The notes under the pieces are model-generated. The model was not told the origin of the DNA. It saw only the letters and a list, made by a program, of their open reading frames with translations, and ran no database searches. 49,215 bases of DNA, taken from the sequence record SRR20825010_1. The stretch is one strand, 5' to 3'. Within the stretch, counting starts at the first letter, position 1, and each line of letters starts with the position of its first letter. The position numbers and the translations under genes are program-made. Positions 8,200 to 39,666 of this stretch are shown here, one piece after another.

Positions 8200-10011
8200 T
8201 CAATCTGGTAGAGCTGATTCGGCGATCGCATTGCGTTTTCGCCGACGCATCAGCCATTCAAACGTCATCCATGCCAATCCGCAAAGTGTGGCCGCGCCCA
8301 TCAAGCCGGCCGGCCAAGATCCTATGCGTACATACAGGCTGATTCGCGAGTCTCGCCTCGGCTGGGCATAGATCACATCGCTTTGTCCTTTTGCCAATCG
8401 CTCGACGACTCGACCGGCTGAATCAATCCACACGGTTGGGCCACCGTTGGCGGCGGACAAAATCGGACGCCGACATCCAACCGCAACCAATTGTGCGCAC
8501 CGCAAATGGTGATCCACGACCGCGGAATCATGGAACCAAACGTCGTTGGTCAACGTCACGATTGCGTCAGGCAGTTTTGGGTTGGCTCGTGAATTCAGTT
8601 GGTGCATGTGATTGACAGGAATTCGTTCCACCGCCGTTTCGATGCACAAGTTTGGCATCAATGAAATCCCGTCCAAGTCAAAGCGTTCCGGCTGGGTTCC
8701 TCGATCCAATCCAAGTCCCGGAGGGACAATGTCGCGGATCCAGGGCAAGCTGTGCACCAACGGGATGGTTTCTCCGAACAGGACGAGGTGATTCTTCGAG
8801 TAGGTGCCGGACATGTTTCCGGTCGCATCCACCCAAAACACGCCGCTGTATTGGCTGGGGCGATCCGCGTACTGGACCAATCCACAGCCGCCGATGATTG
8901 CCGGTGGGGCCTCGGTTGGCACGGTGGAACCGGCCCTCATCGCTCGCTGGATGCTGTTCGCGCGATCCAAGAAGTCGTTCTGTTTGCTTTCCACTGCGAA
9001 ACGAAGTTGTTCAGGCTGCAACGGCGCGGCTGCTGGGTTCTGCATGAAGTCAGGAACCACCAGATCGGCGCCGGTCGTCATCCAAGGCAATCCGCCCGAG
9101 AACATCGACTCCGGCCAAACAACTGCATCGATTCGTGTTTTCGATTTAGCGACCGCATCGATTGCCATTTGACCGTATGTCGCAAAGATCTCCTGTTCAC
9201 GCACGATGTCTTGTTCGTAGACCGTCAGTTCGTTGCCTCCCAAAAGTGCGATCGTTTTGCCGGTCGGTTCCGTCTCGGCATTCATCGACATTGCTCCGTA
9301 GGCCATCGTGGCAATCAGTAAACCGCCTGCGGTCACCAATGACTTCATCGGGGAGTCAGAGACACTTGATGTCCGTTGAACGACCCATCGATTCAGTGCG
9401 TCGAACATCGCAACGTTGACGCAGACGATCACGAAGCTGACCGCATAGGTTCCGCCCAAGTCTGCGATTTGGATGAGTATTGGCATATCAGCCAGTGCGT
9501 GGCCGAGCATCAACACCGAGATCCCGGTGAAGAAGTAGTTCCGAATCCACTCCAAGCCAACCCAAACGACGGCGGCGACAAGGCAAAGCGGTACTCGATC
9601 TCGCCGTGCTTGAGAGACATCACGGTTGTCAGTCAATCGCAGGCGCCGGAGCAACGCGACAAAGAGAACGGGATAGATTGCCAAGTAGCCTGACAATGCA
9701 ATCCAAGGCAAAAACATCAACGGGTGTGCGTGGCGGAGACCTTGCAGGCTGAGCAACCAATATGCGAGCGAAGCGGCGTACAGGGGCCGCTTCCAAGAAG
9801 AGCTTGGCGAGACTTCCGCGATCGCCAGCAGCGGAACCAGTGCGATGAACACCAACGGACCGATCGCGAATGGAGGTCCCGAGAGCCAAAGCACCACCGC
9901 GAATGCGGACGATGTCGCAAAAAGCCACCTCATGGAGGCGGGGTCGAGCGATGGTTGCTTGGTGGCGACTTCCGACGCAGGAAGGTCGGTGGCGGTTGTG
10001 TTTTCGCTCAA
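8200..10011 (-). CDS. lnt: Apolipoprotein N-acyltransferase
   Basis: N-terminal TM helices (WVGLEWIR, QIADLGGTYAVSF) plus nitrilase-fold triad E (VWPES), K (YSKNHLVLFGE), C (LCIE), and TNDVWF. Confidence 0.92.
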   Translation of the reverse strand: MSENTTATDLPASEVATKQPSLDPASMRWLFATSSAFAVVLWLSGPPFAIGPLVFIALVPLLAIAEVSPSSSWKRPLYAASLAYWLLSLQGLRHAHPLMFLPWIALSGYLAIYPVLFVALLRRLRLTDNRDVSQARRDRVPLCLVAAVVWVGLEWIRNYFFTGISVLMLGHALADMPILIQIADLGGTYAVSFVIVCVNVAMFDALNRWVVQRTSSVSDSPMKSLVTAGGLLIATMAYGAMSMNAETEPTGKTIALLGGNELTVYEQDIVREQEIFATYGQMAIDAVAKSKTRIDAVVWPESMFSGGLPWMTTGADLVVPDFMQNPAAAPLQPEQLRFAVESKQNDFLDRANSIQRAMRAGSTVPTEAPPAIIGGCGLVQYADRPSQYSGVFWVDATGNMSGTYSKNHLVLFGETIPLVHSLPWIRDIVPPGLGLDRGTQPERFDLDGISLMPNLCIETAVERIPVNHMHQLNSRANPKLPDAIVTLTNDVWFHDSAVVDHHLRCAQLVAVGCRRPILSAANGGPTVWIDSAGRVVERLAKGQSDVIYAQPRRDSRISLYVRIGSWPAGLMGAATLCGLAWMTFEWLMRRRKRNAIAESALPD

Positions 10012-11430: not shown

Positions 11431-13176
11431 TCATCTGTAGTCCGGTTGGCTGACGATCACACCTTCGGCAACCTTCGTTGGTTGTGGACCAGGGACGATT
11501 GCATTCGGTGGAAGCAACTCGCCAGCACCGAAACGATTGTTGGCGGGTGACGCGGTGTTTCGTGCAGTCCGCTGCGGGTAGTAGCCAGACGGATTTGGCA
11601 TCGCTCGCTGCGGCATGTTTCGCGAAGCTTGCGGGGTCGACATGGTTGGATCGACAATCTCACCTTGCGGGTAAATGAGCTCTGGGGCACCGTTCAGCGA
11701 GTCTTGGTAGATCGGTGCTTGGTGCATCATCGGACCAGATTCGATTGGTCCTCCGCGGAAGCCGCCGCTGATGCCAGGTTGCAAGTTTTCGTTGTCGCAA
11801 TCGTTGGCTTTCAAGTTCGGCACTTCGATGTGACCGTAAAGGTAAAGCTCTTTGTCGTCAGGCGAATGTGTGTTCATGCCAGGGCCACCGCGAGGCACTT
11901 CGTGTGGATCCATGGCTTCCACCAATTCGGGCGTCACCATGATCAGCAACTCGATTTCGTTTCGGCGTTCCTGCACGGAACGAAATAGCGATCCAACATA
12001 TGGAAGGCTGCCTAAGAACGGCGTGCGTTTGATGGTCGACTCTGTACGGCTTTGCAACAAACCAGCCAGGGCGAACGTTTGTCCCGCTTGCATTTCGACT
12101 GCGGTTTCGACGTATCGCGTCGTGAAGGCGGTCACGTTGGTGCCGTCGATCGTGATGGCTCTCGAGGAGTCGGGTTCACTGACCTCAGGGCGAACTTCCA
12201 AACGAATCCGACCGGGGCCAACGACGAAGGGCAGGAAGTCAATGCTGGTTCCGTAATCTTCATACTTGACTTGGACCTGGCCGTTTTGGCCGGGGATAAT
12301 CGTTGGGATGCGACCACCGACGGTGAATCGTGCTGGACGTCCGTGTGTGGCAACCACAGTGGGTTCAGCCAGCAGTTTGACTAGACGTTGTTCTTCCAAT
12401 GCATTGATCAGTGCTTCGAAGTTTCCATTCACACCGATTCGAAGATTGGTGTCTCCAGCCGGAATAATGCCATCCGTGGTGCCGGCACCGACATCCAAAA
12501 TTCCACTTGGGCCGCTTAGAATGCCGAAGTTGTCATTGAGGATCGCCAAGTCGACGCCGAGTTCACGGAGCTTCGTACGGCTGACTTCCATGATCTTGGT
12601 GTGCAACAAGACTTGTTGGATGCCGACGACTTGGATGTTGTTGATGACCGTCGTGTAAAATTGTTCGGTGATCGCGACCGCTTTGTCCACGTCGTCAACA
12701 CTGGTGACATATCCAGAGATGATCGCAGACTCGCCGATGGGCGTGACTCGAAGCGATGCCAGCGGCAGCTGCGAGTTCAAAATGCCTTCGACTTCACGAG
12801 CGTCGGCGACGACGGTGACGTCAATGGTGTAAAGCTTGTCCTCGGTGTCCCAAAGGTTGATCTGAGTGGTACCCGGGGTCTTACCGAAGACCTGGATTTG
12901 ATTTTCAGAAACCGGGGTCGCACCCAGGACTTCCTCGTTGTGAACTTGGAATCGTGGAATGCGTTCGCCGAGCGAGAGGATGCGACTGCTCTTCACGATC
13001 AAGTCCATCCGCTCAACGGTTTGGTTGATCTGGTGATCGCCTGCGGCAGAAGCAAGCGTCGTCGCGGACTGCGCCATCACCGGTTGAGAAACCGAAAGCA
13101 TCGCCAATCCAAATGCGGTGGCGAGCAGACAGCGGACCGATAGGTCGCGACGGATAAGAAAAGTGCACACTCGCAT
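11431..13176 (-). CDS. cpaC: Tad pilus secretin CpaC/RcpA
   Basis: Signal peptide, GKTPGTTQINLWD N-domain, BON-like part, QVLLHTKIMEVSR, LAEPTVVA, AGQTFALAGLL, PFLGSLPYVGSLFR, ELLIMVTPELV. Start placed at ATG 13176 behind an AAGGA SD (alternative 13185). Confidence 0.92.
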   Translation of the reverse strand: MRVCTFLIRRDLSVRCLLATAFGLAMLSVSQPVMAQSATTLASAAGDHQINQTVERMDLIVKSSRILSLGERIPRFQVHNEEVLGATPVSENQIQVFGKTPGTTQINLWDTEDKLYTIDVTVVADAREVEGILNSQLPLASLRVTPIGESAIISGYVTSVDDVDKAVAITEQFYTTVINNIQVVGIQQVLLHTKIMEVSRTKLRELGVDLAILNDNFGILSGPSGILDVGAGTTDGIIPAGDTNLRIGVNGNFEALINALEEQRLVKLLAEPTVVATHGRPARFTVGGRIPTIIPGQNGQVQVKYEDYGTSIDFLPFVVGPGRIRLEVRPEVSEPDSSRAITIDGTNVTAFTTRYVETAVEMQAGQTFALAGLLQSRTESTIKRTPFLGSLPYVGSLFRSVQERRNEIELLIMVTPELVEAMDPHEVPRGGPGMNTHSPDDKELYLYGHIEVPNLKANDCDNENLQPGISGGFRGGPIESGPMMHQAPIYQDSLNGAPELIYPQGEIVDPTMSTPQASRNMPQRAMPNPSGYYPQRTARNTASPANNRFGAGELLPPNAIVPGPQPTKVAEGVIVSQPDYR

Positions 13177-13343
13177 CTGAGGCATCCTTGCCGGGGCGGG
13201 TCGAGTTATTCATTCATCTCCGCGAGAATTCATCCATGAACTCTCGGCGATCAGTCCGTCGATTAAGCGGCGGGCTGGGCGGCGATTCGCTGGGGGCGAA
13301 CTTGCCTTGGCATCAGTCGTGAATCTTGTTTTCGTCCGAGCCT

Positions 13344-14468
13344 TTAGCGGCTGGTCGGACCAAACTCATCGGACCGCGAATCATCCGCTTCGGAACGGTT
13401 TGGTGGTCCGCTGTTGTAGAACGGACTTTGCGATCCGTTCAGGTAGCTGTAATCGGTCGGTGCACTGGGTTCATCCAGTTCGTTCTCGCTAGGGAGGGGA
13501 TAATCTGCACCCGGACGAGTTCGCAGGTCGTTGTTGGTGTCTTCCAGTTCTTCACGACCTGATTCAGCCAAGACCTTCGGCACGCTGGATCCTTCTTCGA
13601 TCCAGTATTCAGTCAGCACACCACCGGACATCTTCAACATCTTGAAGCCCCGTTTCTTTTCTTTCTTGGGTGCTTGAATGGAAGGTGTCGTCACTGGAAC
13701 TTCGACGCGATTGTTGTCTTCTTCGCGTTGTGCTTGAGCGATCTGATAGTCGGACAGCCATCGCAAGAATTCTTGCCCGGCACCGCCATCGGTCTCGCCG
13801 TCCTTTGTTTCGTTGATGTCGCTCGGGTTACCCAGCGTCAGGCGAATCTTGCCGAGTTCGCTGGCATAGGTCCAAGCGGGAGTGTCTTTTTTATGAATCA
13901 GCAGCGAGATCGACCGGGCCGGTTTGGCTTCGGCTTCCGAGTCAACTTCGCGTTCGGTGCGTCCGTCAACGGCGAAGACTCGAACGCCTGTCAAAACCGT
14001 TTTCGCGGTCGTCTCAGGAATCAATTCGCTTTTGACAAAGTAAGCCATCACGTCCACACGGTCGCCGGGGCGGACCAGGGTCGCAACGCTACTTTCAGGG
14101 TCGGCTCGCATCGACACGACGCTGAAACCGACAGGAATGGTTTGGGATGAACCGTTGGCATCGGCCATCAATTTGACCGGCATCACGGGTTCGCCTTCGT
14201 AGAAACGCTGGCGCGCAAATTTGCCTTCGACGTCTTCGAGTTTGCCACTCGCTCCGGTCGGAACACGATCGGCGGGCCATTGTTCGAGACGGATTTTGTC
14301 AGCGGTGATTTCTTCGGCGATATCAATGGTTTTCGCAGTGACGAAAATCTCGACCGTTGCTACCGAACTCTGACCCGTCGATTGAGCTTGCATCCATTGG
14401 CTAACGCCGATCGCGGCGATCGTGCCGCAAACGCAGGCCAAGATGAGGAAGACTGATTTGTTTCGCAT
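13344..14468 (-). CDS. cpaB: Flp pilus assembly protein CpaB/RcpC
   Basis: N-terminal TM anchor, SAF-like domain, signature LVRPGDRVDV, TVLTGVRVFAVD, GKIRLTL. Start at MRNKSVFLIL (14468). Confidence 0.9.
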   Translation of the reverse strand: MRNKSVFLILACVCGTIAAIGVSQWMQAQSTGQSSVATVEIFVTAKTIDIAEEITADKIRLEQWPADRVPTGASGKLEDVEGKFARQRFYEGEPVMPVKLMADANGSSQTIPVGFSVVSMRADPESSVATLVRPGDRVDVMAYFVKSELIPETTAKTVLTGVRVFAVDGRTEREVDSEAEAKPARSISLLIHKKDTPAWTYASELGKIRLTLGNPSDINETKDGETDGGAGQEFLRWLSDYQIAQAQREEDNNRVEVPVTTPSIQAPKKEKKRGFKMLKMSGGVLTEYWIEEGSSVPKVLAESGREELEDTNNDLRTRPGADYPLPSENELDEPSAPTDYSYLNGSQSPFYNSGPPNRSEADDSRSDEFGPTSR

Positions 14469-14747: not shown

Positions 14748-15305
14748 TCAGACCAATTGGCCCGTCGCGGCGAAGTAGATGATTGTGCCGATGGCCATTG
14801 GAATTCCGTATGGCAACAGGTACATGGTCGGTTTTCGCTCTCGAGCAATCGCGGCGAGTTGCTCAGGTTTGCGAATCGTTCGCCATTCATCCATGATTTT
14901 CCAGAATTGAGCATAGTGTTTCACCCATGCTCCGCTCTTCCAGATCATGAAGGCTGCCATGATGCCGCCGACGATGGCGGTCGCAGCAAACGCTTGCAAC
15001 GTGATCATGGTACCGCACCAGGCTCCGATGCCCGCGAGCAGTTTCACGTCGCCTGCACCCATTCCGCCTACGTTGCGAAGTGGCAACAGAAGCATCATGC
15101 CGACGAAAGTGCCGAGCAAGCTGTATCCCAGTTCGGGAAAACCGCCCTGGATGAAACAGTGTGCCCATCCGCAAATTATGAACGGGAAAGTCAACCAGTT
15201 AGGGACTTTCAAAATCATGCCGTCGATGACAGCAGCAACGATAAGGACAACCGTCACGAACCAGATGGTCCAGTTTTCGGTGATGCCTTGAAGGAGAGTG
15301 TCCAT
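14748..15305 (-). CDS. cpaA: Flp prepilin peptidase CpaA/TadV (A24 family)
   Basis: AAVID..KVPNWLT, GGMGAGDVKLLAGIG (two catalytic Asp), LPYGIPMAIG. Confidence 0.92.
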   Translation of the reverse strand: MDTLLQGITENWTIWFVTVVLIVAAVIDGMILKVPNWLTFPFIICGWAHCFIQGGFPELGYSLLGTFVGMMLLLPLRNVGGMGAGDVKLLAGIGAWCGTMITLQAFAATAIVGGIMAAFMIWKSGAWVKHYAQFWKIMDEWRTIRKPEQLAAIARERKPTMYLLPYGIPMAIGTIIYFAATGQLV

Positions 15306-15430: not shown

Positions 15431-15541
15431 TCAGCGAGGACCGATCATCCAGCTCAACATTGCGAACAGCAAAGTCACGCCACAGCAGGCCAATTGCCAG
15501 ACATGGGCGGCAGCGTCAGCGGGAATTAGTGGGTAGTTCAT
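15431..15541 (-). CDS. Putative 36-aa single-TM peptide between flp and cpaA
   Basis: ATG 15541 to TGA 15431: MNYPLIPADAAAHVWQLACCGVTLLFAMLSWMIGPR; one hydrophobic helix, co-oriented inside the pilus locus, only a weak SD. Confidence 0.45.
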   Translation of the reverse strand: MNYPLIPADAAAHVWQLACCGVTLLFAMLSWMIGPR

Positions 15542-15667
15542 TCGCTCGATGCCCGGGGGCAAACCTAAAAGGTGTGAAATGAGTGGTAGCGAAGACTTCC
15601 ATTGAACTTTCAATGGCGGATTGTCTCATGGCGATCCAATGAGTCGTCGCAAAAGGGCTCCCCCACG

Positions 15668-15719
15668 GGCGATGCCGAAAGGCGGCGAGAGTGGTCTCGC
15701 CGCCATTCGGTATGTCGCC
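15668..15719 (-). terminator. Long hairpin downstream of the flp pilin (terminator or mRNA stabiliser)
   Basis: Minus strand GGCGGCGAGA-CCAC-TCTCGCCGCC is a perfect 10-bp stem followed by TTT; the stem extends outward via CCGAA/TTCGG and GGCGA/TCGCC. Confidence 0.6.
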
Positions 15720-15751
15720 AAATTGACGGGATGGACCCGCCGGATCAGCAC

Positions 15752-15931
15752 TTAGTTGGCAGCGATTGCAGCGCCAGCTTCGCCGAACTTCGCGTTGGCG
15801 TTGCTACCGATTGTGGTAACAGCACCGATGCAAACGACGATGATCAGAGCCAACAAGACGGCGTACTCAACAGCCGTTGGTCCGTCTTCTTCTTTCAGGA
15901 AAGCAACAACGTTTTCAGCAAACTTTTTCAT
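15752..15931 (-). CDS. flp: Flp family type IVb pilin (59 aa)
   Basis: Below the ORF-track cutoff. MKKFAENVVAFLKEEDG|PTAVEYAVLLALIIVVCIGAVTTIGSNANAKFGEAGAAIAAN*, with the Flp G-xxxx-EY motif and a GGAG SD upstream. Confidence 0.95.
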   Translation of the reverse strand: MKKFAENVVAFLKEEDGPTAVEYAVLLALIIVVCIGAVTTIGSNANAKFGEAGAAIAAN

Positions 15932-16107
15932 ATCTAACTCCAGACAAAAACGGGGGCCACGATTATGTCTCGTTAACCCGGCGACAAAGTGTCAGTCGAT
16001 TCGATGTGAACCGACCCAGGTGACAACAGCCTTCGTCAATGGAAATCAAACTGACAAGCCTCGGTTCAAACTCAAACGTGTTTCAAATCGAAACGACGTA
16101 GAGTTCT

Positions 16108-16224
16108 TTCCACGGCAACTCGGCTTTCCTGAAGCCAAGCCGAACGCAAACAATGCGATCGACCGACTCACGGACCCGTGGTTTTGCGTGCCGTCCTCTC
16201 GAACGGTTTGCCTTTGTCAGGGAA
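16108..16224 (-). ncRNA. Cyclic di-GMP-I (GEMM) riboswitch aptamer in the flp leader
   Basis: Minus strand UUCCCUGACAAA-GGCAAA-CCGUUC-GAGA-GGACGG-CACGCAAA-ACCACGGGUCC...GGAAAGCCGAGUU-GCCGUGGAA. P1 is UUCC-UG/CG-GGAA, P2 has a GNRA tetraloop, P3 is extended, and the GGCAAA and ACGCAAA junction motifs match the GEMM consensus. Confidence 0.88.
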
Positions 16225-16324
16225 CTTCGGCTGACCCAGTCGAGCAGTCCAAGGCAACACACCTTCGAATGCTCGACGTGGCAGTGAACCGCCGCATTTA
16301 GGCAATTCACTTTCTCACTACCGA

Positions 16325-16352
16325 ACACTACGACAGAAAACGAAGGTGTCAA
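16325..16352 (-). promoter_or_regulatory. Sigma70-type promoter for the riboswitch-flp transcript
   Basis: Minus strand TTGACA-N16-TAGTGT, about 100 nt upstream of the aptamer. Confidence 0.55.
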
Positions 16353-16518
16353 AAAAGATCGGTTGGCCGAACCTTAACGGCGAGGCAAGTTGCCGGGTTG
16401 CTCCGGTCGTAACGATTGGGCGGCCGGCCACGATTGTAAAAATGACAATTGGGCGCATGCACTTATAGAAGACCGTTGCCCCTCTGCGTGTTAGTTCGAA
16501 AACCCGAACCTGGCGGAG

Positions 16519-37935: not shown

Positions 37936-39666
37936 ATGAACGCAACTACCGCTCTCCAACGCTGCCGATTCGGGTTGGTGTGGATCACGCTGTCGCTGAC
38001 CGCCGCTGGCGGATGCACATCGTTTTGGAAACGTGATCAGAACGACCCGTCGAACAATCCAAAATTGGCCAAATTGCTGAAGGTTCCTGATCCGCCGGAT
38101 TTAATTCGAGAAGCGGCCATTCCTCATGGAATGCAAAGCGTTCGCGTCAATGGCGTTGCGATTGTCAACGCGTTGCCCGACACCGGCGGCCCCGCATTGC
38201 CTTCTACCTTTCGCGATATGTTGCTGGAGGAGATGAAACGGAAAGAAATTCCAAATCCAAATGATTTCCTGGAACTCAACACCACCGCGCTTGTTCAAGT
38301 GCTGGGAACGATTCCACCAGGATCACGTCGTGGCGACACGATCGATTTGGAAATCTTGACCCCTACGAAAACCGAAGCGACCGACCTACACGGTGGTTGG
38401 CTGCTTGACACTCGCCTGCGTCACCAAAAAGTTCTCGACAGTGCCGTTCGCAGCAGCGATGTGTTGGCGGTTGGTACCGGACCCGTGCTCACGCGAGGCG
38501 ATCACGAAGGCGAAGCAGACGGTGCGTTGCGAGTCCAAGGTACGGTCTTGTCCGGCGGTGTCGTGCAGAACGATCGCAAGTTGGGATTGGTTTTGCGGCC
38601 TGATTTTCAACACGTCAAAATGTCGGCGGCAATCGCTCAAGCCATCAACCATCGCTTCTACTTCTTTGACGGATCAACTCGTCGTGGCATCGCCGAACCG
38701 ATCGAAGACGACTTCATTCAGTTGGATGTCCATCCTCGCTACCGCAACAGTGTCTCCCGCTTGATGGCGGTTATTCGTGCGATTGGTGTCGCACCTGAAT
38801 CATCCAACACGCAGGTGCGTCTGACGGAACTTGGCGAACGCATGAAGCTGCCTGCGAAGGCTGCCGATGCGGCGTTGCAGTTGGAAGGGCTCGGCGAACC
38901 AGCCATTCCAACATTGCTGGATGCGGTTCAGTCGTCCAACCCCGAATTGCGTTTCTATGCCGCGGAAGCGTTGGCTTACTTAGATCGCGAAGAAGCGGTG
39001 GATCCTTTGATCGCGGCAATTCGTGCGGAGCCCGCGTTCCGTGCGCCAGCGCTCAAAGCACTCGAAGACATGCAACACCACAACGTGGTTGAGGGTCTGC
39101 AGCGCTTGATGGATTCGCCCAGCTTGGAGACTCGCTATGGCGGATTCAGCACACTGCGAAATCGTGAAGATGGCCGACAAAAACTCGCCGGACAAAATCT
39201 TCGTGGAACCTATCGGCTGTATCAAGTTGCATCGACCGCGAAACCCGCCGTCGTGGTATCGCTGCGTCGCAATCCAGAGATCGTTTTGTTCGGCGATGTT
39301 CAGCCATTGCAGATCGAAACGTTCTTCTTAGGCCCATCGGGGATCATGATTCGCTCCGTGCCTGAAACCGGACAGCTTCGGATCAGCCGTTTTCAAGCGG
39401 GCAAAGACGATGCGTTTGCCGAAGTCGACAACACGCTCGCTGGGATGCTGGAAGGCCTGACGGAAGTCGGCGGAGGCTATGGCGATGCGGTTGCACTGCT
39501 GAGGATGGCCAAGACACAAGGCATCCTGCCCGATCAGTTGGCTTTCGATCCGCTGCCAAAGAACCTGAGAACCTATTATCGCAACGAAGGTTCTGACGAA
39601 GACGACTCGGACGAGGATAGCAAGGGATTCGCGAGTGACTCCGATGAAGAATCCGACGGAGTCTGA
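37936..39666 (+). CDS. FlgI (P-ring)-like lipoprotein with HEAT repeats
   Basis: Lipobox-like AGG-C; VNGVAIVNALPDTGG, TALVQVLGTIPPGSRRGDTIDL and DLHGGWLLDTRL resemble the FlgI N-terminus; HEAT-like ELRFYAAEALAYL and FRAPALKAL; acidic tail. Confidence 0.75.
   Translation: MNATTALQRCRFGLVWITLSLTAAGGCTSFWKRDQNDPSNNPKLAKLLKVPDPPDLIREAAIPHGMQSVRVNGVAIVNALPDTGGPALPSTFRDMLLEEMKRKEIPNPNDFLELNTTALVQVLGTIPPGSRRGDTIDLEILTPTKTEATDLHGGWLLDTRLRHQKVLDSAVRSSDVLAVGTGPVLTRGDHEGEADGALRVQGTVLSGGVVQNDRKLGLVLRPDFQHVKMSAAIAQAINHRFYFFDGSTRRGIAEPIEDDFIQLDVHPRYRNSVSRLMAVIRAIGVAPESSNTQVRLTELGERMKLPAKAADAALQLEGLGEPAIPTLLDAVQSSNPELRFYAAEALAYLDREEAVDPLIAAIRAEPAFRAPALKALEDMQHHNVVEGLQRLMDSPSLETRYGGFSTLRNREDGRQKLAGQNLRGTYRLYQVASTAKPAVVVSLRRNPEIVLFGDVQPLQIETFFLGPSGIMIRSVPETGQLRISRFQAGKDDAFAEVDNTLAGMLEGLTEVGGGYGDAVALLRMAKTQGILPDQLAFDPLPKNLRTYYRNEGSDEDDSDEDSKGFASDSDEESDGV

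Follow-up and report, generated by a model that had tools for sequence, protein, structure and literature searches.

What governs the production of the major pilin in a planctomycete that carries Tad pilus genes? The question is raised by a stretch of 49,215 bases from the record SRR20825010_1 (the whole of this stretch is here called the window), on the minus strand of which a short pilin gene, flp, stands before a row of Tad genes. An earlier note on this DNA, made from the sequence alone, had proposed that the leader of flp holds a complete GEMM aptamer, the aptamer of riboswitches that respond to cyclic di-GMP (c-di-GMP). The reading favoured here, with a probability of roughly 0.8, is that the element is an ordinary c-di-GMP-I riboswitch, transcribed from a conserved promoter about 100 nucleotides (nt) upstream and situated within a flp leader of about 390 nt in a Rhodopirellula-like planctomycete. 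The host is placed in or near Rhodopirellula by its DUF1581/DUF1583 domains, by a sulfatase and by the identities of CpaB: the DNA of the cpaB locus is 97% identical to that of Rhodopirellula europaea 6C, and the CpaB protein is 86% identical to that of R. halodulae.

The aptamer and its binding site

The whole window was scanned with cmscan against Rfam 15 at gathering thresholds. A single riboswitch was found, RF03167 (c-di-GMP-I-GGC), at 16221..16110 on the minus strand, with an E-value of 9e-12. Its score of 60.0 bits lies above the gathering score of 59, and the match covers the full model (positions 1-80 of 80), so that the proposal of a complete aptamer is borne out. Another family of clan CL00126 also matched the aptamer region at the gathering level, with a lower score. 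When the region 15700-16500 was searched permissively with Rfam, only noise appeared besides the aptamer, for example RAGATH-26 at 21.9 bits against 86.3. A covariance model built from 11 aptamers with an Rfam-like structure, termed R1, gives the window aptamer 132.4 bits.

16110..16221, minus strand: c-di-GMP-I class (GEMM-I) aptamer with P1, P2 and P3, the last with a long extension; identified by RF03167, the R1 model and covariation

The nucleotides that contact the ligand in this class are all present. Position 16212 is a G (model position 10), 16185 an A (model position 37) and 16115 a C (model position 75), while in P1 the G at 16218 is paired with the C at 16114 (model positions 4/76). 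We take these to be the equivalents of G20, A47, C92 and the G14-C93 pair of the Vc2 aptamer. The earlier note had named the same coordinates, and they agree exactly with both the sequence and the cmscan alignment. It had also described a GNRA loop on P2 and a long extension of P3; P2 is indeed capped by GAGA, a GNRA loop, and an insertion of about 45 nt in P3 forms an extended helix.

Conservation of the aptamer in related loci

Eighty related loci, here numbered with the prefix L, were retrieved through an alignment of CpaB homologs, in a distribution survey that covers GTDB species genomes. In seven of them the DNA upstream of cpaB is shorter than 1,500 bases; these were set aside, leaving 73 that can be judged. 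The R1 model was run on the window and all 80 loci and returned 65 matches, all with E-values of at most 4.7e-14: the window itself and 64 aptamers in 61 loci. The aptamer is found in relatives as well, in 61 of the 73 judgeable loci. Among the 12 loci closest to the window it is present in 11, the twelfth (L006) having too little upstream DNA.

The position of the element is as regular as its presence. All 65 aptamers lie on the strand of cpaB and, in loci with full flanks, are for the most part some 1.4 to 1.9 kb upstream from it. An open reading frame (ORF) with a Flp motif follows 64 of the 65, the exception being L058, where it is apparently frameshifted. The distance from aptamer to start codon is 99-224 nt in the 62 loci with a clear start, and 178 nt in the window. 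Three loci carry two aptamers, the upstream copy being about 2.5 kb from cpaB. These are tandem units of aptamer plus flp, about 0.9-1 kb apart, in L031 (3400-3526 and 4374-4497), L047 (3437-3558 and 4392-4513) and L066 (3550-3660 and 4455-4566).

Base pairing in the aptamer was assessed on 64 distinct sequences, with 500 column shuffles and slid-partner controls. Standard pairs occupy 94.3% of the aptamer cells, against 82.9% in the shuffles and at most 50.8% with slid partners, in an alignment that was fitted to the model and is therefore biased in favour of the structure. Changes on both sides of the pair (double changes) occur in 22 of the 32 aptamer pairs, and none of the 500 shuffles reaches any of the observed measures. 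The positions of the binding site hardly vary: the equivalents of G14, A47 and C92 are conserved in 65/65 aptamers, that of C93 in 64/65 and that of G20 in 61/65. When restricted to the 11 closest aptamers, RNAalifold favoured a GGCAA/UUGCC pairing over the P1/P2 closure of Rfam; on 65 sequences it is the Rfam-like structure that is supported.

Two observations weigh against an ordinary riboswitch. The best Rfam model is a variant, RF03167, whose threshold is exceeded by only 1 bit, and 12 of the 73 relatives lack the aptamer both by the R1 model and by the Rfam gathering scan (L025, L028, L029, L032, L043, L044, L050, L059, L064, L068, L071 and L078). The flp gene is retained in five of these twelve.

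The aptamer fold, the canonical nucleotides of the binding site, the cis position before flp and the conservation of this arrangement across the Pirellulaceae are features of the sequences themselves. By analogy with the class, the RNA would bind c-di-GMP and would thereby change the output of flp, possibly together with that of the small ORF and of cpaA-cpaB-cpaC-tadZ downstream. From what is established for the class, it is also reasonable to suppose that c-di-GMP would switch Tad pilin at the transition from swimming to attached cells, as the earlier note had suggested.

The promoter and the 5' part of the leader

The earlier note had placed a promoter of the form TTGACA-N16-TAGTGT upstream of the aptamer. 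The hexamers are found at this spacing, with the -35 element TTGACA at 16352-16347 and the -10 element TAGTGT at 16330-16325, separated by 16 nt.

16325..16352, minus strand: putative sigma-70-type promoter, preceded by a run of T; from reading of the sequence and the leader alignment
16283..16311, minus strand: first hairpin of the 5' leader (GUGAAUUGCC..GGCGGUUCAC); from RNAalifold on 61 leaders
16234..16282, minus strand: second leader hairpin; from RNAalifold, its inner pairs each having 12-25 double changes

A scan with a consensus promoter returned no site at TTGACA/TAGTGT, because TAGTGT fits the consensus at only 3 of 6 positions. The motif recurs all the same in relatives. Upstream of the 65 aptamers the consensus reads TTTTTTGACt..N..TGtC.TAg.TTT, with TTGAC and TAG.TT/TAGTGT at a fixed spacing. 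For the comparison of whole leaders 61 were used, that is, the 65 less three whose start codon is not clear and one with no match to the -35 element. A relaxed form of the promoter pattern occurs in 57 of these 61, and also in L028 and L029, which have no aptamer; a strict form matched only 13 of 65. These patterns support a start of transcription near 16318, which would lie upstream of the aptamer.

The transcript predicted from this promoter would be highly structured. From the -10 element into flp, a span of 431 nt, folding gives z = -3.93, and none of 100 shuffled sequences is as stable. Over the 61 leaders, helices backed by covariation comprise the two hairpins before the aptamer, P2, P3 with its extension, and two hairpins between the aptamer and flp, termed H3 and H4. 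In the first leader hairpin, 17-24 sequences per pair show changes on both sides; this hairpin is kept in the aptamer-less loci L028, L029 and L032.

The leader between the aptamer and flp

The aptamer is flanked by short conserved blocks, one on its 5' side (alpha) and two on its 3' side (beta and gamma), interspersed with hairpins. The 3' strand of P1 is here called pi.

16229..16233, minus strand: block alpha, CAGCC, inside the conserved GGUCAGCC just 5' of the aptamer; from the alignment
16068..16106, minus strand: H1, a hairpin of variable sequence directly 3' of P1; from folds of the single sequences
16058..16064, minus strand: block beta, CCGAGGC (CCAAGGC in most relatives); from RNAalifold
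16031..16058, minus strand: H2 hairpin (CUUGUCA ... UGAC-G-AAG), its interior lineage-specific; from the sequence and aligned blocks
16027..16037, minus strand: block gamma, GACGAAGGCUG; from the consensus line of the leader alignment
15993..16017, minus strand: H3 hairpin; from RNAalifold
15955..15979, minus strand: region equivalent to H4, which covaries in relatives and is only partly pairable in the window
15938..15941, minus strand: Shine-Dalgarno (SD) sequence GGAG, 6 nt before the ATG; from reading of the sequence

Block alpha is complementary to gamma and in part to beta, and in the upstream alignment GGUCaGCC is conserved. Block beta is complementary to pi, whose GCC..GG occupies 16116-16114 and 16111-16110 and includes the ligand-contacting C. 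In the RNAalifold consensus the pi:beta pairs are 87-100% standard, with only 0-3 double changes. At least 90% of the 61 leaders retain the GGCUG of gamma. A first search pattern for gamma was dropped as too strict, since it matched only six of the 61 aptamer leaders; among four aptamer-less flp leaders it was found in L029 only, which is uninformative for the same reason. Counted directly, GGCUG occurs once each in L029 and L044 and is absent from L028 and L032, which we count in favour of a coupling of gamma to the aptamer.

The hairpins differ in how they are conserved. H1 varies in sequence by lineage, yet a hairpin forms there in each. Of the ten pairs of H3, five show 10 to 21 double changes and five show 1 to 5, and 4 to 22 cells per pair are non-standard. 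For H4, 13-22 double changes per pair are seen over the 61 leaders; in the window, three of the seven aligned pairs are standard. Most relatives have a conserved CUCACUCGCGAGGAGAGAGAC-AUG, in which the GAG of the SD lies inside a small local hairpin. A U-run, GUUUUUGU, stands before the SD in the window, L001 and L002 only. A pairing of CUGACAA in the aptamer with a downstream UUGUCAG was set aside: it has 7 base pairs in the window and 3-4 in other lineages, and we read it as due to chance or as part of H2.

How ligand binding might reach flp

The conserved blocks suggest a toggle. Without ligand, the 3' strand of P1, including the ligand-contacting C, would pair with beta some 50 nt downstream, and alpha would pair with gamma. 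With ligand bound, P1 would close, alpha would become the partner of beta, and gamma, once freed, would find a partner farther downstream in the direction of the ribosome-binding region. The aptamer would then serve as the sensor in a bigger leader RNA, about 390 nt long and peculiar to the family, in which alpha chooses between beta and gamma according to the hold of the P1 3' strand on beta, the choice being relayed over more than 150 nt to the ribosome-binding region of flp; a few relatives with A or C at the equivalent of position 20 might have a shifted specificity. This wider proposal is put forward tentatively, and on balance we doubt it.

Folding predictions give the toggle some encouragement. 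The RNAalifold consensus pairs the P1 3' strand with beta and alpha with gamma. The pi:beta pairing is present in the local minimum free energy (MFE) structure of 54 of the 61 homologs. In MFE structures of the context from alpha to gamma, pi:beta occurs in 48/61, alpha:gamma in 53/61 and the G14-C93 pair of P1 in 2/61. When the aptamer is forced to form, the most probable partner of beta lies in the alpha region, with a probability of at least 0.5, in 28 of 61 homologs (counted by hand); the mean probability of alpha:gamma drops from 0.30 to 0.15, and there is a tendency for gamma to pair with a block that lies about 50 nt ahead of the start codon.

The objections to the toggle are serious. 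The pairings among alpha, beta, gamma and pi show almost no covariation, because the blocks are nearly invariant: each pair has 0-7 double changes, and the number of non-standard cells rises to 24 of 61 at the outer alpha:gamma pair. Nor are the MFE counts independent of one another, because the homologs share the blocks, and sequence conservation alone would give the same counts. In the window itself alpha:gamma has only 5 base pairs, and in both states the ensemble gives it a probability of 0.0. Further results weigh on the main reading, at its output step. The predicted effect on the SD is not consistent. In folds from the aptamer to 30 nt beyond the ATG, forcing the aptamer raises SD accessibility in 33 of 62 leaders, with means of 0.48 in both states; in folds from the approximate start of transcription, accessibility goes up in 7 leaders, goes down in 3 and is unchanged in 51 of the 61. 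In the window it falls from 0.33 to 0.06, a change clearly shared only with L002, and this fall points to an OFF switch, opposite to the ON direction guessed at below. An intrinsic terminator is not conserved either: a loose rule, which asks for a hairpin with a U-rich tail after it, is satisfied by 19 of 62 leaders, the hairpin being mostly H3, and the window is not among them.

A second possibility is that the aptamer is functional and that its ligand, with no toggle acting on translation, sets premature termination (Rho-dependent or at H3) or the access of RNase, and hence the level of full-length flp mRNA. The 178 nt between aptamer and start codon would be long for a direct sequestration of the SD, whose accessibility is in most homologs insensitive to the state of the aptamer, and the U-rich tail that follows the hairpin in the 19 leaders has, in the Roseimaritima-like group, 6-8 U. 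On the other hand, the same rule finds no terminator-like site in the window and 42 other leaders, and a leader predicted to be so highly structured (z = -3.9) would be unfavourable to Rho loading. We regard this explanation as possible, at appreciably less than even odds.

An ordinary c-di-GMP-I riboswitch could exert its effect here on the initiation of translation, through termination (Rho-dependent, or intrinsic but weak) or on the stability of the mRNA. As to direction, a c-di-GMP-II riboswitch reportedly stands before pilA1, a type IV pilin gene of Clostridioides difficile, and is said to be an ON switch acting on a terminator. From this example and from c-di-GMP biology in general, we would guess, by a slight preference, that flp is ON at high c-di-GMP.

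Ligand specificity and other explanations

If the leader is a riboswitch, its ligand could still be something other than c-di-GMP, the aptamer being a specificity variant of the c-di-GMP-I-GGC type or of the c-AMP-GMP type of GEMM-Ib. The top model for the window is RF03167 rather than RF01051 (c-di-GMP-I), and the same model is best for six of the 11 closest aptamers (60.0-66.2 bits). The other five are matched best by RF01051, with 52.6-54.6 bits against a gathering score of 35; their cores are nearly identical to those of the six, so that sister sequences with the same core exceed the RF01051 threshold by 17-20 bits. The sole site at which the RF03167 consensus departs from the ordinary one is model position 37, where it has a G, and we take the label 'GGC' to mean this G at the equivalent of A47, judging from the model consensus. 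The window has an A there (16185), as do all 65 aligned aptamers. Because an A and not the G of RF03167 occupies this position, the binding site is of the ordinary G/A/C type. The element thus looks like a member of the ordinary c-di-GMP-I class, the RF03167 label being an effect of model composition.

Position 20 is the other site of concern. An A at this position is the signature of c-AMP-GMP-selective GEMM-I variants. The window has a G, and four of the 65 related aptamers depart from it: A is found at the equivalent of 16212 in L074:4169-4282 and L056:4175-4289, and C in L072:4223-4321 and L073:4222-4320. These four may have a shifted ligand preference. For the window, a ligand other than c-di-GMP appears unlikely.

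Less likely again is a leader whose main role is in trans: as a stable RNA present in large amounts, it would buffer c-di-GMP or bind a protein, and its link with flp would be incidental to regulation. The leader is indeed long and strongly structured, is more conserved than a simple platform requires and carries several conserved blocks containing AGG/GGA. Yet in 64 of 65 cases the aptamer lies in cis on the strand of flp, 99-224 nt before it wherever there is a clear start; aptamer and flp have been duplicated together as a unit in three loci; and no separate terminator closes the leader in the window, a scan of which found no intrinsic terminator on its minus strand. A chance resemblance or a decayed, functionless relic, for which one could cite the single bit by which the threshold of the best model is exceeded and the 12 relatives without the element, is negligible in view of the E-value of 9e-12, the compensatory changes in 22 of 32 pairs over 64 distinct sequences and the invariance or near-invariance of the ligand-contacting positions.

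The flp gene and the downstream Tad genes

The genes that the riboswitch would control follow it on the same strand. Pfam domains were sought in 38 ORFs out of the 70 ORFs of at least 150 amino acids (aa) in the window.

15752..15931, minus strand: flp, a 59-aa Flp/Fap prepilin with the motif EEDG/PTAVEY; PF04964, 42.1 bits against a cut-off of 32.2
15675..15710, minus strand: long hairpin, rich in GC, that follows the stop codon of flp, CCGAAU-GGCGGCGAG-ACCACU-CUCGCCGCC-UUUCGG; from the window sequence
15431..15613, minus strand: small ORF of 60 aa between flp and cpaA; tblastn matches in 71 of 80 loci, no Pfam family
14748..15305, minus strand: cpaA/tadV prepilin peptidase; PF01478 (Peptidase_A24), 65.8 bits
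13344..14555, minus strand: cpaB/rcpC; PF16976, 63.6 bits, and SAF
11431..13185, minus strand: cpaC/rcpA secretin; PF00263, 131.1 bits, and PF13629, 54.9 bits
10105..11334, minus strand: tadZ/cpaE-like ParA/MinD ATPase with a receiver-like N-terminus; AAA_31, 33.5 bits, and CbiA, 30.4 bits

The identification of the 59-aa ORF as a Flp pilin is upheld: it passes the Pfam cut-off and has both the G/xTAxEY processing motif and a hydrophobic segment (...EEDGPTAVEYAVLLALIIVVCIGAV...). Its absence from the ORF track fits its length, which is just under the default cut-off of 60 aa. The hairpin that follows flp may, as an attenuator or stabiliser, adjust how much pilin is made relative to the machinery. 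In the small ORF it is the final ~36 aa (MNYPLIPAD...) that are conserved; they probably represent the real protein, a small membrane component of Tad loci. The cpaB ORF of 403 aa, with its GTG start, is probably over-extended; the start is more plausibly M30 (MRNKS...) near 14468, because the homologs are 350-370 aa long and align from about residue 30. The tadZ/cpaE product scores 22.2 with TadZ_N, under the cut-off of 26.4. The Tad genes end where lnt (8200-10011, minus strand) adjoins tadZ/cpaE.

The statement that flp heads a Tad locus holds in part. The pilin is followed by the small ORF, cpaA, cpaB, cpaC and tadZ, and to this extent it stands. No CpaF/TadA (T2SSE) or TadB/TadC (T2SSF) domain was found in the 38 scanned ORFs, so that of a complete Tad locus the pilin, peptidase, CpaB, secretin and TadZ are present and the ATPase and platform were not found. 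The locus in the window therefore represents the pilin, the peptidase and the outer-membrane half of a Tad system, and the genes for its motor and platform may lie outside the window. Elsewhere in the window, an ORF at 37936-39666 on the plus strand has a flagellar P-ring (FlgI) domain (56.7 bits) joined with HEAT repeats.

Relation to known systems

The closest structural comparison is with Vc2 and the RF01051 family. The window aptamer shares with them two hairpins closed by P1, the J1/2 segment ACAAAGGCAAACC, a GNRA loop on the first hairpin, and the same G, A and C ligand-contact positions with G14-C93 closing P1 (Vc2 numbering). Its cis position before the gene for a surface appendage is typical of the GEMM-I class. 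It differs in the helical extension of P3 by about 45 nt and in scoring best with RF03167, a model whose G at position 37 it lacks. It differs too in its place within the transcript, since it sits in the middle of the ~390-nt leader, preceded by ~100 nt with two hairpins and followed by 178 nt. If the toggle described above were true, the class would gain a new platform architecture, one that makes use of a 5'-flanking strand and surrounds the aptamer as a whole.

In function, the pilA1 system of C. difficile is a close parallel. There too, reportedly, a c-di-GMP riboswitch stands before the major pilin of a system in the type IV-filament family, but its aptamer is of class II rather than class I, the pilus is of type IVa rather than Tad/Flp, and the phylum is a different one.

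The association itself has a precedent in the paper that introduced the GEMM motif (Weinberg et al. 2007, NAR 35:4809), the main text of which describes GEMM as common in 'Plantomycetes' and counts cpaA among the gene families under GEMM control in more than one case. The supplement names Rhodopirellula baltica SH 1 as one of the species that have a GEMM hit, and its file 1 contains, for Blastopirellula marina DSM 3645 (Bma-1-1), the row "RNA -> Flp -> hypo -> CpaA" (Weinberg et al. 2007). The order of this row, RNA, Flp (COG3847), a hypothetical gene and CpaA (COG4960), is that of the window, the small ORF corresponding to 'hypo', and the organism belongs to the same planctomycete order; it is another species, and the comparison is one of context and taxonomy rows rather than of sequence. 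As it stands in the main text and supplement, this is a catalogue entry, without analysis of the leader or of its distribution within the family.

The earlier note knew of no characterisation of this arrangement in the phylum. As a prediction it was catalogued in 2007; as regards experiment, no study of a c-di-GMP riboswitch in planctomycetes or before flp was found in the literature searched, which left most subscription journals outside. The association with Flp and CpaA in planctomycetes is therefore already known as a prediction, and the picture of the riboswitch class is unchanged. What goes beyond the catalogue entry is only the conserved architecture of the leader, the few variants at position 20 and the relatives without an aptamer. 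Of these, the conserved leader around the aptamer is possibly the new part, and it is offered as a hypothesis.

Significance for the Pirellulaceae

Members of the Pirellulaceae have a life cycle that passes from a swimming to a sessile cell, and c-di-GMP signalling in them has hardly been studied. The flp leader is predicted to provide a direct link, at the level of RNA, between c-di-GMP and the major Tad pilin of this family. Since most of the family carry the element, it could be used as a native reporter of c-di-GMP and as a way into the study of attachment in planctomycetes.

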